From IMG/VR virus record IMGVR_UViG_2526164609_000025: DNA of 3,473 nucleotides; one strand, given 5' to 3'. A model generated the notes under the pieces. The model had not been told where the DNA came from. It did not search any database and saw only the letters and a list, made by a program, of their open reading frames with translations. The stretch's first letter is position 1. The number at the start of each line of letters is the position of its first letter. Position numbers and translations under genes: made by a program. The DNA comes from a virus (taxonomy: Duplodnaviria; Heunggongvirae; Uroviricota; Caudoviricetes). Below, one piece after another: positions 1 through 3,473 of the stretch.

Positions 1-732
1 TGTCCGGTCGTAAATGTCGCTCTGTGCTTCCATCGTGGCCGCACTTTTCAGCCCCAGATTATCCCGGGACTTCTGTTGTGCCTTTTCGCCTGCTGCTGCG
101 ATTTCTGACAGATGGTTAGCCATTTTCAGAGTGCCGGTCAGCGCAGCATCAATGTCATTTTTGGCCTGTTCTGCTGCGCGGGCATAACCTGCGGCATCCT
201 GTGCGCTCTGTCCGGCTGCGGCTGCATTTGCTCCTGTGCTTGTCACATCTTCCGCAGTGGCCTTTCTGTTCTCAGCTGTGACGGTTGCATCCTGTCGGGC
301 TTTCTCCGCAAAACGTTGTGCATCATCACGGGCCGTTGCGGCTGCCGTCACATCCTGCGCCGTCTGCCGTGCGTTTCCGGCTGCGCTCCCGGCACTCTGC
401 TGCGCCTGTTGCGCCAGCTCTTCGAATTTCTTCAGGGATTCCGGACGCAGGTCAATATTAGTTGCGCCCAGAAAATCATTCAGCGAACCGTCCGTTGAAT
501 CTTCATAAACGCGGATGACACCGATTTCTGAAAGGCGCCGTGTGCTTTGTGTCAGGCGAACGCTGTACACACCCGGCAGAACGGGGAAGTCATATTCCCC
601 GTTCTGTGTGGTGACATGGCTGAAAACACTTTTCAGAATCCCTGCACGGTTGTGTATGGAGGTTAGTGTAATGGTTGCGCCGTCCAGCGGTTCTCCCGTG
701 GGCGTTTTAATCACACCTTTAAGCTGCGGCAT
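1..732 (-). CDS. Side tail fibre protein, lambda Stf-like, N-terminal 244 codons; 3' end lies beyond the window start
   Basis: Hand translation of the minus strand from ATG at 732-730: MPQLKGVIKTPTGEPLDGATITLTS...GVIRVYEDSTDGSLNDFLGATNIDLRPESLKKFEELAQQ..., then an Ala/Gln-rich region, open to position 1. Pattern matches recalled lambda Stf / StfR N-terminus (GVLKDGTGKP...TITVYEDSQPGTLNDFLGA...PEALRRFE). GGAG 8-11 nt upstream of the ATG. Not in the ORF track, presumably because no stop lies in the window. Confidence 0.8.
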   Translation of the reverse strand, partial: MPQLKGVIKTPTGEPLDGATITLTSIHNRAGILKSVFSHVTTQNGEYDFPVLPGVYSVRLTQSTRRLSEIGVIRVYEDSTDGSLNDFLGATNIDLRPESLKKFEELAQQAQQSAGSAAGNARQTAQDVTAAATARDDAQRFAEKARQDATVTAENRKATAEDVTSTGANAAAAGQSAQDAAGYARAAEQAKNDIDAALTGTLKMANHLSEIAAAGEKAQQKSRDNLGLKSAATMEAQSDIYDRT

Positions 733-1264
733 CGGGACGCTCCGGCCAGTTGATGGCGTTATATGTGGCTTTATCTGTGATGGTGCTGAAATCCATCGCC
801 TGCAGCGATTTCGCGTAAATACGACAGGCTTTCAGCTTTTCTTTATCTTCGTCGCTGATTAACCCCAGCAACAGGTCTTCTTCCCATTCCCCTGTCCGGG
901 CACTGACCTGAGCCAGAAGGGCATCACGCTCATCTTCCGCTTTGAGTCTGTAGTCAAGGACAAATTCATCATTGCGGTAAAACCAGTAACCCGGCGCGGT
1001 AATGCGGCGGTTGGCGGTAATATCAGGAACTTCAATAACACTGGCGTTACGGGGTTCAATGCCTGTCACATCCTTACCGACCCACACCACGCGCCCGTCT
1101 CCGGTGTAAGCTATTTTAATTGTGTCGCTGGCGAAATTCTTCAGTTCTTCATACCAGTTTTTGTCGTCCTCCGAAAAAAGCCAGGTAATATCATATTTTT
1201 TTGTCATCTGGTATTGTTCCGCAGTTTTCGGATTACCCGCAGTAATATTTTTTAAATGCAACAT
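719..1264 (-). CDS. Tail fibre assembly protein (Tfa / P2 gpG-like chaperone), 181 aa
   Basis: ORF track 719..1264 minus. N-terminus MLHLKNITAGNPKTAEQYQMTKKYDITWLFSEDDKNWYEE resembles recalled P2 gpG; C-terminus RIYAKSLQAMDFSTI...INWPERP resembles the Tfa C-terminal motif (YRVLLNRVD...DIEWP). Start lies 2 nt after the stop of the upstream fragment; its stop overlaps the stf start by 14 nt. Confidence 0.75.
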   Translation of the reverse strand: MLHLKNITAGNPKTAEQYQMTKKYDITWLFSEDDKNWYEELKNFASDTIKIAYTGDGRVVWVGKDVTGIEPRNASVIEVPDITANRRITAPGYWFYRNDEFVLDYRLKAEDERDALLAQVSARTGEWEEDLLLGLISDEDKEKLKACRIYAKSLQAMDFSTITDKATYNAINWPERPDAAA

Positions 1265-1266
1265 TG

Positions 1267-1428
1267 TTAAATACTCGCTACGTTATACCAGGTGCCATTA
1301 ATCAGTTTTTGCAGCGGTCGGTAATACACACCGTTGACGTTATCCGCTGAGTTACGGCCGGTATCCGATATCGATATCCCTGACAATCCGTGTCCGGCAG
1401 GTGCGCGAAATCTCCACGAAACGGTGTT
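1267..1428 (-). pseudogene. 3' fragment (53 codons plus stop) of an upstream gene, probably a tail-fibre/receptor-binding protein, truncated at the IS911-like left end
   Basis: Minus-strand frame is open from the IS boundary at 1428 to TAA at 1269-1267 (NTVSWRFRAPAGHGLSGISISDTGRNSADNVNGVYYRPLQKLINGTWYNVASI*). Stop sits 2 nt before the tfa ATG, the usual fibre-then-chaperone coupling. No family-level similarity recognised, so identity is inferred from position only. Confidence 0.4.
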
Positions 1429-1464
1429 TGAAGTGGCACACTGAATTTGGCCACCTGAACAGAG
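1429..1464 (+). repeat. IS911-like left terminal inverted repeat (IRL)
   Basis: 36 nt; 24/36 identical to the reverse complement of the right end, with perfect outer 8 nt (TGAAGTGG) and a conserved TGGCCACC block. Confidence 0.7.
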
Positions 1465-1500
1465 GTGATATGCTCACCTCAGAACAACACAGGTGCTCCA

Positions 1501-2676
<1,176 letters not shown>

Positions 2677-2775
2677 TACCTGACACATCGCTTCAATGGG
2701 AAATTGTTGTCGCCATTGTTCGATTAACGCGTATTTTTCAGCGACTCCTGTGCAAAATACGCTGTTGCTTTTTTT
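2677..2775 (-). pseudogene. IS600-like orfB, 5' fragment (about 33 codons), truncated by the IS911-like element
   Basis: The -1 frame downstream of the A7 run is open to the IS911-like boundary and shows the ...YALIEQW..FPIEAMCQV motif; remainder of orfB (DDE domain) is absent from the window. Confidence 0.6.
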
Positions 2776-3026
2776 AATATATCTCGCTCAAGGCGAGCTT
2801 CATTTAACGCCTTACGCAGTTGCAGAATTTCAGATTCCAGTTCAGCCACCGTGCGGGAACCAGGAGTACCGAGCCCTTTTCTGGCGGCGGTAACCCATTG
2901 TCCTAAAGTGCCTTCAGGAAGGGATAATCGGGAAGCGCCTTCACTGATCGAAAGTTGATTTTCAAGAACCGTTCTGACAGCTTCGGCTTTGAACTCTTTA
3001 GAGTAACGTTGGTTTTTTCTGCTCAT
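2724..3026 (-). CDS. IS600-like transposase OrfA, 100 aa
   Basis: ORF track 2724..3026 minus: MSRKNQRYSKEFKAEAVRTVLENQLSISEGASRLSLPEGTLGQWVTAARKGLG...LERDILKKATAYFAQESLKNTR; HTH plus leucine-zipper-like C-terminus typical of IS3-family OrfA. AGGAG 7 nt upstream of the ATG. Confidence 0.85.
   Translation of the reverse strand: MSRKNQRYSKEFKAEAVRTVLENQLSISEGASRLSLPEGTLGQWVTAARKGLGTPGSRTVAELESEILQLRKALNEARLERDILKKATAYFAQESLKNTR
2769..2775 (-). promoter_or_regulatory. Probable -1 frameshift slippery run (A7) of the IS600-like element
   Basis: Minus-strand TTA-AAA-AAA-GCA in the orfA frame; the -1 frame from here reads KKSNSVFCTGVAEKYALIEQWRQQFPIEAMCQV, an IS3-family OrfB N-terminus. Confidence 0.5.
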
Positions 3027-3077
3027 TATTAGCTCCTTCTGATGCCATTCTATTTCAGGAAGGAGTGTCCGTTAAAC

Positions 3078-3473
3078 TCAGGCTACCTCAGGCTGATCTA
3101 AGAGTGACGAAAAGAGTTTATCTTTCAGCGTGAGATCGTGTTCATAGACAATGCGACGAATGCTGCCTTCAATGCCCAGACGATCGGCATGATTCTGATA
3201 ATAGAAAACGAAATCTTCACTCAGAACATCGTGGAGAAACGGAATGGTGAGGAGATCTTTGGGAAGCTGGCTCAGAGAGTCGCTGTCGAGAAAGAGGTCC
3301 GGCTCATTGAGATCGATTTGCAGATTGTTGTGCACCACCAGCGGCGACAACGTTTTTTCTGGCCCACTGCCAGCATATTGCAACGCCCAGACGCCAGCGG
3401 AAAGCAGTACTATTGCACCAAAACCTACAAGACCATAGAACCGCCAGCCTTTCGCCTTTTTTTCACCACTCAT
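3078..3473 (-). CDS. Membrane-anchored protein of unknown function, N-terminal portion; reading frame runs 4 codons into the IS600-like end and stops (host-derived part 3091-3473)
   Basis: ORF track 3078..3473 minus: MSGEKKAKGWRFYGLVGFGAIVLLSAGVWALQYAGSG... has one hydrophobic N-terminal helix (signal anchor), then a soluble domain. Last codons P-E-V-A plus stop are encoded by the IS terminus. The ATG is the last 3 nt of the window, so the true start could be further upstream. Confidence 0.55.
   Translation of the reverse strand: MSGEKKAKGWRFYGLVGFGAIVLLSAGVWALQYAGSGPEKTLSPLVVHNNLQIDLNEPDLFLDSDSLSQLPKDLLTIPFLHDVLSEDFVFYYQNHADRLGIEGSIRRIVYEHDLTLKDKLFSSLLDQPEVA

Follow-up and report, generated by a model that had tools for sequence, protein, structure and literature searches.

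The window, by which we mean the whole stretch of 3,473 nucleotides analysed here (IMG/VR record IMGVR_UViG_2526164609_000025), is very probably the distal end of a contractile-tail prophage that was eroded by insertion sequences in a chromosome of the Shigella/EIEC type, and whose ancestor would have carried two co-directional cassettes of a fibre and its chaperone. The order of its tail genes, in which a fibre remnant is followed by a chaperone gene (tfa) and then by a second, lambda Stf-like fibre gene, had originally been predicted to be atypical and to break the rule that a chaperone follows the fibre that it serves. This was not confirmed, as the Mu U-like Tfa comes after a Mu S-like fibre (fibre 1) and the Stf-like gene (fibre 2) is followed in turn by a gene with a DUF4376 domain. 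With either chaperone placed right behind its predicted client, the order has nothing atypical about it, and the comparisons below indicate an ordinary and already known tandem arrangement, as in phage phiP27. The module found here is a non-functional relic, with fibre 1 cut by IS911, fibre 2 frameshifted and the remaining phage lost.

Gene content of the window

The features of the window are collected in Table 1. The original prediction had placed the minus-strand genes of positions 1-1428 correctly to the base, and its description of their products as a fibre C-terminus, a Tfa-family chaperone and the N terminus of a lambda Stf-like fibre was borne out by matches in Pfam, PHROG and the PDB. 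In particular, the two identities on which it depended, a fibre at 1267-1428 and a Tfa chaperone at 719-1264, were both upheld. All three are strong homology matches and not chance open reading frames.

Table 1. Features identified along the window (positions in nucleotides).
Feature	Position	Strand	Remarks
Fibre 2, first 244 codons	1-732	-	PF08400 at residues 4-129, then Ala/Gln-rich coiled-coil region; gene continues past the window edge
Tfa, intact, 181 aa	719-1264	-	PF02413; Mu gpU-like; predicted partner of fibre 1
Fibre 1 3' remnant, last 53 codons and stop	1267-1428	-	Collinear with codons 358-410 of the L003 fibre; Mu gpS-like tip
IS911, 1248 bp	1429-2676	+	Both terminal inverted repeats; breakpoint that cuts fibre 1
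IS600 left end, about 415 bp (inverted repeat and orfA, 100 aa)	2677-3090	-	blastn against the IS600 of L004; interrupted by IS911
yfaA (DUF2138), 5' part	3091-3473	-	Core chromosomal gene, cut by IS600

Fibre 1 and its chaperone

On the minus strand, the frame of fibre 1 runs open from its junction with IS911 (1428) to a TAA at 1267-1269, and the remnant is collinear, without gaps, with the end of intact fibre genes of 366-410 aa in E. coli prophages. Nucleotide identity to these intact prophages is 96-97% over the whole 1428 nt. In PHROG, the remnant matched families of tail fibres at their C-terminal end (phrog_6859, positions 294-346 of 346, E 2.5e-20). The full-length homologue in locus L003 matches Mu S (5yvq_A, E 6e-56), and its tip, to which the window fragment is 94% identical, aligns with Mu S over residues 321-409, including the stretch ...INGTWYNVAS. 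Through this homologue the fragment shares the Tfa-bound C-terminal tip of a gpS-type fibre, and it appears to correspond to the receptor-binding tip of Mu gpS. Of the complete gene, with its N-terminal region for attachment to the baseplate, only codons 358-410 are left before IS911 adjoins at 1428/1429.

The tfa gene has its ATG at 1262-1264 and its stop at 719-721, and is separated from the stop of fibre 1 by only 2 nt (1265-1266), a spacing that is identical in the intact relatives. Its position directly downstream of a Mu S-like fibre is that expected of the Tfa family, and the protein matched PF02413 Caudo_TAP (94.5 bits against a cut-off of 22.1, E 7.7e-27, residues 40-177), phrog_136 (E 2e-59) and the Tfa of Mu, gpU (PDB 5yvq_B, E 9e-37, residues 1-158). 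It had been described as P2 gpG-like, which holds at the level of the Pfam family that both share, but the protein appears nearer to Mu gpU. In the index of the assembly collection, the exact Tfa protein appears in 51 blocks, and it was through this protein that the source loci were identified. At one other locus (L015) tfa is disrupted.

We predict that this Tfa is the chaperone of fibre 1. Its N-terminal, client-binding domain closely matches Mu U over residues 1-100, and Mu U binds the tip of Mu S according to the structure 5yvq (North et al., 2019, as cited in PMC7882524). Besides, the fibre 1 tip and tfa travel as a unit (query positions 13-685, about 87% identity in many genomes) and the N terminus of fibre 2 varies, which supports the pairing of fibre 1 with Tfa.

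Fibre 2 and its downstream partner

Fibre 2 starts with an ATG at 730-732, preceded 7 nt upstream by a GGAG, and overlaps tfa by 14 nt (719-732). Its N terminus belongs to PF08400 phage_tail_N (105 bits against a cut-off of 26.6, E 4e-30, residues 4-129) and to phrog_2636 (E 9e-95), and it also matched the N-domain of Ur-lambda Stf (PDB 9e7m, E 1e-9) and the collar spike gp40 of the Vibrio myophage XM1 (PDB 7kjk, E 3.4e-10, residues 3-187). The protein is 96-98% identical to the intact genes of L003 and L004, where the homologue has 468 aa. The best match in a phage is L56 of phiP27 (44% over 99% of the query), and identity to the Stf N-domains of lambdoid phages is about 40%. The context is not that of a lambdoid phage with a non-contractile tail, as no J/lom was found upstream; the gene upstream of fibre 2 is tfa, and all the intact relatives carry a sheath and the baseplate protein J/gp47.

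The original prediction had suggested looking beyond position 1 for a second tfa that would partner the Stf-like gene. What the source genomes have there is instead a gene carrying PF14301 DUF4376, directly downstream of fibre 2 in source loci L005-L013, in phiP27 (L57) and in phage pPE4 (gp70); the L003 protein scored 60.7 bits against a cut-off of 25. Proteins with DUF4376 have been found experimentally to be required as fibre chaperones, as in gp27 of the Alteromonas phage V22 (PMC7289586, PMC10579305), and in the CJIE1 prophage of Campylobacter a DUF4376 gene is needed for the function of the upstream fibre (PMC7882524). From this precedent within the family and from the position of the gene, we predict that the DUF4376 protein is the chaperone of fibre 2. 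A profile-profile comparison of Tfa with DUF4376 gave no relationship (probability 0.2%, with shallow profiles of 6 close relatives each), and a search of PDB sequences for a solved relative of the DUF4376 protein returned only chance hits.

The order would be truly atypical if Tfa served the downstream Stf-like fibre, or both fibres, and we consider this unlikely. Lambda Stf does require a Tfa of the PF02413 family, and the 14-nt overlap suggests that the translation of tfa and fibre 2 is coupled. Against this stand the likeness of the Tfa N-domain to Mu U and of the fibre 1 tip to Mu S, and the transfer of that tip together with tfa. Furthermore, fibre 2 always has the DUF4376 gene directly downstream, and its C terminus stays with this gene even where another Stf N-terminal block has been swapped in (L015-L019, 98% and 95% identity), while a Pfam scan found no gp37- or Mu S-type tip in this C terminus.

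Conservation of the gene order

The order of fibre, Tfa, PF08400 fibre and DUF4376 protein is intact in phiP27 (L54-L57, NC_003356) and in pPE4 (gp67-70), in a Mu-like prophage, where it lies directly before com/mom, in an E217/XM1-like contractile prophage that carries ipaH3, and in prophages at the uspF-ompN site. It is found at several loci in S. flexneri SFBU1023 and E. coli ECMA0423, and also in several ipaH prophage remnants of Shigella/EIEC. The intact relatives in E. coli include the GmM062 prophage at uspF-ompN and the Mu-like prophage of FDAARGOS_943. The original prediction had recommended a comparison with intact related prophages, and of the two explanations that it offered, this recurrence favours the dual-fibre phage with tandem fibre cassettes.

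Frequency was estimated from searches for the tfa/fibre 2 junction in E. coli genomes. The junction of the phiP27 type was covered to 80% or more in at least 119 of 5426 complete genomes, and the overlapping junction of the window, with both genes annotated, was present in at least 25 genomes among the matches listed. A pattern search for PF08400 relatives in species-representative genomes gave 5 loci, too few for a taxonomic distribution. The phiP27 genome was reportedly published in 2002; in the literature on PF08400/phage_tail_N we found no paper discussing the tandem cassette.

The second explanation on offer, a mosaic joint created by recombination, is partly right. Two types of Stf N terminus, 41-47% identical, occur behind the same tfa, one with the 14-nt overlap of the window and the other with the 23-nt spacer of phiP27, and the homology between the two types is lost in the final ~12 codons of tfa. 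There is real mosaicism at this joint, but inside a conserved architecture that it did not create. That the junction is a one-off product, in which illegitimate or homologous recombination fused regions of Mu/P2 type and of lambda type without any functional dual-fibre ancestor, is very unlikely, even though a true recombination boundary exists there and the locus has been strongly rearranged by IS elements. The order is found with intact ORFs in phiP27, in pPE4, on at least 3 different contractile-tail prophage backbones and in at least 119 E. coli genomes, and both variants of the junction retain all four genes in the same order. A single mosaic event is thus largely refuted by the conservation data.

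The weakest alternative is a remnant of an invertible host-range segment like G of Mu, C of P1 or P of e14 (with Gin, Cin or Pin), in which the invertase switches between alternative fibre tips and chaperones; it can be rejected for the loci examined and is extremely improbable. In its favour, the second cassette of the Mu-like relatives sits between U and com/mom, where the Mu map has U'-S'-gin. However, the four genes all point the same way, neither tfa nor the fibre tips occur as inverted copies, and the invertase genes (pin/gin) or crossover sites proposed by the original prediction were found neither in the window nor in relatives or source loci. No relative or source locus has an annotated invertase within 10-14 kb, a gix-like core, AAACCNNGGTTT, is present in 0 of 22 loci, the window contains no match to gix, and the inverted repeats beside the module are weak ones attributable to chance, with none that is significant.

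Insertion sequences and decay of the prophage

The loci identical to the window have the layout yfaA'-IS600'-IS911-fibre1'-tfa-fibre2 (310 aa)-DUF4376-ipaH, and the gyrA-yfaA' context is present in L005-L014. At this locus the source chromosomes retain no more than ~3 kb from the end of the phage, everything upstream of codon 358 of fibre 1 being lost. A scan of genome contigs gave no exact match to the 50-nt IS911/fibre junction. The combination of ipaH with IS600, IS911 and IS1 points to a chromosome of the Shigella type.

IS911 has its terminal inverted repeats at 1429 and 2676, contains orfA and orfB, with an A6G slippery site (AAAAAAG) at 1751-1757, and is 99% identical to annotated IS911-family elements in E. 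coli records. Compared with the IS911 copy that L009 has at this locus, its orfA lacks 1 nt. The element is not flanked by a target-site duplication (the flanks are GTT and TAC), and it has phage DNA on one side and internal IS600 sequence on the other, both of which point to a rearrangement or deletion rather than to a simple insertion of IS911. The adjoining 2676-3090 is 99.5% identical (blastn) to the complete IS600 of L004, with the orfA ORF at 2724-3026. Next to it, the match to yfaA, a gene that 5397 of 5426 E. coli genomes contain, has 99.7% identity and ends at query position 383; the fragment marks the chromosomal edge of the prophage remnant.

That the fibre gene of the first cassette was truncated by IS911 is confirmed by the remnant abutting 1428/1429. 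The further proposal, that the prophage had probably lost one receptor-binding specificity, is correct as far as fibre 1 goes but falls well short of the damage, as the upstream phage has been lost and the source genomes carry fibre 2 only as a pseudogene. In the genomes identical to the window it has an additional A at nt 911 (a +1 frameshift), 179 nt beyond window position 1, that leaves 310 aa rather than 468, and in a second lineage it has a nonsense codon at position 68, so that neither group has an intact full-length ORF.

A probable dual-fibre ancestor

From these comparisons, the late operon of the ancestral phage would have ended in two consecutive, co-directional host-recognition cassettes. 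The first would have consisted of a Mu S-like baseplate fibre with a Mu U-like Tfa chaperone, and the second of a fibre with a collar domain of the lambda Stf type and its own downstream DUF4376 chaperone, with a convergent ipaH effector gene after it. The 2-nt gap and the 14-nt overlap would favour translational coupling in one late transcript and co-expression. In the intact phage, the N terminus of fibre 1 would attach to the baseplate and, by homology, the collar domain of fibre 2 would build a ring of accessory fibres, giving a virion with two receptor-binding proteins simultaneously. Candidate sites for this ring would be the neck, the site of XM1 gp40, and the tube/baseplate junction, the site of lambda Stf. 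Later, a rearrangement mediated by IS911/IS600 would have deleted all that lay upstream of codon 358 of fibre 1, and the frameshift in fibre 2 would have followed.

The N-domain of Stf is a 12-mer collar on the lambda tail that anchors the trimeric side fibres as a ring (PMC12617516), and in XM1, a myophage, gp40 is attached to the neck through its homologous N-terminal domain (PMC10457771). By analogy, we tentatively propose, as a possibility that we rate somewhat below even, that the Stf/XM1 gp40-type collar of the second fibre forms an accessory-fibre ring on the neck or tail of phiP27-like, Mu-like and E217/XM1-like ipaH phages, conferring two receptor specificities at once. In Mu-like genomes, where the tandem cassette occupies the site of the invertible U'-S'-gin unit of Mu, it might then be a "both at once" alternative to an "either/or" switch of host range, and the collar block might be exchangeable between siphovirus and myovirus tails. 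In the literature searched we found no experimental work on the docking site of the second fibre or on its contribution to host range.

As a dead relic, this locus is of little import in itself. What the analysis corrects is the impression of a rule-breaking gene order, and it shows the window to be one of the tail-fibre ends with ipaH that recur among prophage remnants of Shigella/EIEC. The wider point is that in many contractile-tail prophages of enterobacteria a lambda-type collar domain is found on a second fibre, which is accompanied by a DUF4376 gene for its predicted chaperone.

Comparison with known systems

As a rule, prophage effector genes are located close to the attachment site, behind the genes for the tail fibres (PMC3530523). 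The placement of ipaH fits this: in the source loci, and in several further copies of the module, it comes just behind the last of the tail genes and is convergent with it. Here ipaH lies outside the window, at a locus that retains only the very end of the phage. With V22 and CJIE1 the common element is a PF14301 gene directly after the fibre, its role in the enterobacterial phages being predicted by family.

The N terminus of fibre 2 and the collar of lambda Stf are of the same domain family (PF08400; 9e7m). The backbones of the window's relatives, in contrast, are contractile-tailed, the tip of fibre 2 is unrelated to that of lambda, and its partner is a DUF4376 protein and not a PF02413 Tfa. 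Vibrio myophage XM1, with its contractile tail, its gp40 (7kjk) with a homologous N-terminal domain and its separate baseplate spikes, provides a precedent for a baseplate receptor-binding protein together with collar fibres (PMC10457771). Its gp40 differs in being an 839-aa spike on the neck, a position that is only a candidate for fibre 2. The gp40 gene is not known to lie next to that of the baseplate spike.

The S-U pair of Mu has clear homologues in fibre 1 (by way of L003) and Tfa, with the chaperone directly after the fibre, and in the Mu-like relatives com/mom come right after the module. The S-like gene of the window is reduced to 53 codons, and unlike the G segment of Mu, the module has no gin, gix, U' or S' and has instead a second, unrelated fibre-chaperone pair in the same direction. 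The Stx2e phage phiP27 differs in its 23-nt spacer, in its subtype of Stf N terminus and in its fibre tips, and its genes are intact, without ipaH or IS elements. Nevertheless, its tfa has 83% DNA identity to that of the window, and L54-L57, which lie at the right end of this temperate phage with a contractile tail, agree with the module in all four genes, in their order and in their domains.

Gene layout and identity of the fibers

The coordinates of the original prediction all agreed with the ORF table and the sequence (see table). The start of fibre 2 overlaps the end of tfa by 14 nt, with a GGAG 7 nt upstream of the ATG. These three minus-strand frames are not chance ORFs, since the tfa product matched Pfam PF02413 (Caudo_TAP; 94.5 bits, cut-off 22.1), the fibre 2 product PF08400 (phage_tail_N; 105 bits, cut-off 26.6) and the 53-residue fibre 1 fragment several PHROG tail-fibre families at their extreme C-terminal end (E down to ~1e-22).

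Position and strand of the features found in the window
Feature	Position	Strand	Remarks
Fibre 2	ATG 730-732 to window edge	minus	244 codons, frame still open
tfa	ATG 1262-1264, stop 719-721	minus	181-codon ORF
Gap between fibre 1 stop and tfa	1265-1266	minus	2 nt
Fibre 1 remnant	1428 (IS911 boundary) to TAA 1267-1269	minus	open frame, 53 codons
IS911	1429-2676		both inverted repeats; flanks GTT (1426-1428) and TAC (2677-2679)
IS600 left-end fragment	2676-3090		415 bp, internal IS600 sequence adjoins IS911
yfaA (DUF2138) core gene	3078-3473		truncated at 3091 by IS600 end

Among complete E. coli genomes, three EIEC-like strains aligned collinearly and ungapped with the whole of window positions 1-1428, at 95.7-96.9% identity. 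Full-length fibre 1 in these relatives has 366-410 aa, of which the window keeps codons 358-410. A full-length relative matched the tail fibre S of phage Mu (PDB 5yvq_A, E 6e-56), of which it is a clear homologue; the tips align as ...RPLQKLINGTWYNVASI in the window and ...RPVQKNINGTWYNVAS in Mu. Tfa, in turn, is closely homologous to Mu gpU (TfaMu; PDB 5yvq_B, E 9e-37). The label of P2 gpG-like given to this gene holds for the Pfam family, common to P2 gpG and lambda Tfa, but the protein is Mu U-like and not specifically P2 G-like.

Conservation of the gene order

The order had been considered atypical. It is in fact fibre 1, chaperone 1, fibre 2, chaperone 2, so that in both cassettes the chaperone comes after its own fibre. 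All four genes are found as intact ORFs in the Stx2e phage phiP27 (L54-L57), in the phage with the deposited name vB_Apl-pPE4 (gp67-70), in E. coli prophages inserted at uspF-ompN, in Mu-like prophages (the module being followed directly by com and mom) and in an ipaH3-carrying prophage whose contractile tail has an E217/XM1-like sheath and baseplate. Single genomes of Shigella flexneri and E. coli also have several loci with the conserved arrangement, three of them with an ipaH gene after the DUF4376 gene. The best phage match to the window fibre 2 was phiP27 L56, which carries PF08400 (E 4e-63), while L57 carries DUF4376. Of 5426 complete E. coli genomes, 119 cover at least 80% of a 421-nt probe spanning the phiP27-type tfa/fibre 2 junction. 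For the overlapping junction of the window type, at least 25 listed genomes show coverage and have both genes annotated within the matched stretch. All four genes are already named in RefSeq annotation. The explanation that stands is that of two cassettes in tandem, fibre 1-Tfa and then fibre 2-DUF4376, in the order seen intact in relatives; the arrangement is already known and annotated as a matter of routine, and is seen here in the decayed remnant of an ipaH prophage.

The tail region of pPE4 (PP818812.1, "Actinobacillus phage vB_Apl-pPE4") has 90-96% DNA identity to the uspF-ompN E. coli prophages. On this similarity Actinobacillus looks doubtful as its host, and it may have come from a prophage of E. 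coli.

The gene downstream of fibre 2

Loci with the tfa of the window were found via the exact Tfa protein, and in four of them (L005, L007, L011 and L014) the window is matched exactly over its full length. The order in these chromosomes is yfaL, ubiG, gyrA, yfaA' (truncated), an IS600 fragment, IS911, fibre1', tfa, fibre 2, DUF4376, ipaH and yfaS; the ipaH gene is convergent and encodes LRR_TTSS and NEL domains. A search beyond position 1 for a second tfa had been suggested, and a partner is present there, a 205-207-aa DUF4376 protein instead of another PF02413 Tfa. In intact relatives its start overlaps the end of fibre 2. In two systems, DUF4376 proteins encoded immediately 3' of fibre genes have proved by experiment to be required chaperones: gp27 of Alteromonas phage V22 (PMC7289586, PMC10579305) and the one serving the H-fibre in Campylobacter CJIE1 prophages (PMC7882524). 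A shallow profile-profile comparison found no relationship between the Tfa and DUF4376 families. Both proteins matched one PHROG family, phrog_11571, the window Tfa with its N-terminal part to the N-terminal part and the DUF4376 protein to the C-terminal part, which hints that the two modules are combinable.

The draft contig of L014 (AKNG01000053.1) ends exactly at window position 1, within the part of fibre 2 that forms an Ala-rich coiled coil. These genomes have multiple copies of the module (in up to 8 places each), which probably broke the assembly there.

Probable chaperone pairing, and module exchange

Many genomes matched query positions 13-685 at ~87% identity and diverged beyond. The tip of fibre 1 and tfa travel together. 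In five loci (L015-L019) the fibre 2 C-terminus (98%) and the DUF4376 gene (95% identity) are retained, yet Stf-N is swapped for a ~40%-identical type. Because of these co-travelling pairs and the homology to Mu S/U, we infer that Tfa would be the chaperone of fibre 1 and the DUF4376 protein that of fibre 2.

The other explanation offered, a mosaic joint created by recombination, is true in part. Six junctions aligned at the DNA level show the two types losing homology within the last ~12 tfa codons: the window type ends in ...NWPERPDAAA-stop, with the fibre 2 ATG within it, and the phiP27 type in ...EWPVSPEASS-stop, followed by a 23-nt spacer. This break, together with the two divergent Stf-N subtypes (41-42% protein identity), means that modules were swapped at the tfa/fibre 2 boundary within a conserved architecture. 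The exchange is therefore a secondary feature, and the joint did not create the architecture.

An invertible fibre segment was ruled out: no invertase was annotated or called near any module copy examined, no gix-like core was found in the 22 fetched loci or the window, inverted repeats around the module are only weak and the four genes are co-directional. The second cassette of the Mu-like relatives is flanked by the U homologue and com/mom. On the Mu map this is the place of U'-S'-gin, and the analogy is positional only.

Decay of the locus

As predicted, IS911 truncates the first fibre, abutting its remnant at 1428. It is not a simple insertion into fibre 1, since neither flank has a target-site duplication (GTT vs TAC) and phage DNA is joined to the interior of IS600. 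This indicates that IS-mediated rearrangement or deletion (recombination) took away the first 357 codons of fibre 1 and every phage gene upstream of it. On the other side, yfaA is cut after ~128 codons, its stop codon being supplied by the IS600 end; no DUF1175 (yfaT) gene was called between yfaA' and yfaS in the source loci, where yfaT appears deleted. Compared with L009 (same locus), this IS911 copy has a 1-nt orfA deletion at ~1735 (GAAATGG to GAATGG), a short way before the A6G slippery site, and its OrfA has 83 aa vs 100 aa. The copy should not yield the normal OrfAB frameshift product and is probably immobile.

The loss goes further than the single receptor specificity originally proposed, as fibre 2 is dead too and no upstream phage gene is left. 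Window-identical genomes have an extra A at nt 911 of fibre 2, 179 nt beyond the window, giving a 310-aa product, and a second lineage (L009, L013) has codon 68 changed from TCA to TAA. Two independent inactivations in lineages with the same remnant fit neutral decay. At this locus tfa and the DUF4376 gene alone are still intact, probably surviving as small mutational targets.

The ipaH gene by the remnant is split into two ORFs in some strains (L007, L010 and L011, ~12694-14457; e.g. 345 + 187 aa), so the effector gene is also decaying in part of the population. In one other module copy (L015/L016 ~6421-6962; S. flexneri SFBU1023 and E. coli ECMA0423) it is tfa that is disrupted, with two overlapping tblastn segments and stops in direct translation, which shows that different genes decay in different module copies.

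The intact ancestor and its proposed collar fibre

In the intact ancestor both cassettes would have been translationally coupled on one late transcript, with fibre 1 attached to the baseplate and the collar domain of fibre 2 carrying a ring of accessory fibres. Folding of each tip would fall to the chaperone encoded downstream of it, and the virion would bear two receptor-binding proteins. The wider interest is limited to what a lambda-type collar fibre does structurally on a contractile tail. The fibre 2 N-terminus matched both the N-terminal domain of the Ur-lambda side tail fibre (9e7m, E 1e-9) and the "collar spike" gp40 of the Vibrio myophage XM1 (7kjk, E 3.4e-10). In Ur-lambda this domain is assembled as a twelve-copy collar around the gpV/gpM junction, to which four trimeric side fibres are attached (PMC12617516), and in XM1 a homologous 100-residue domain attaches six trimers to the neck (PMC10457771). 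The ring of fibre 2 could have been placed either at the neck, like that of XM1, or close to the baseplate, like that of lambda.
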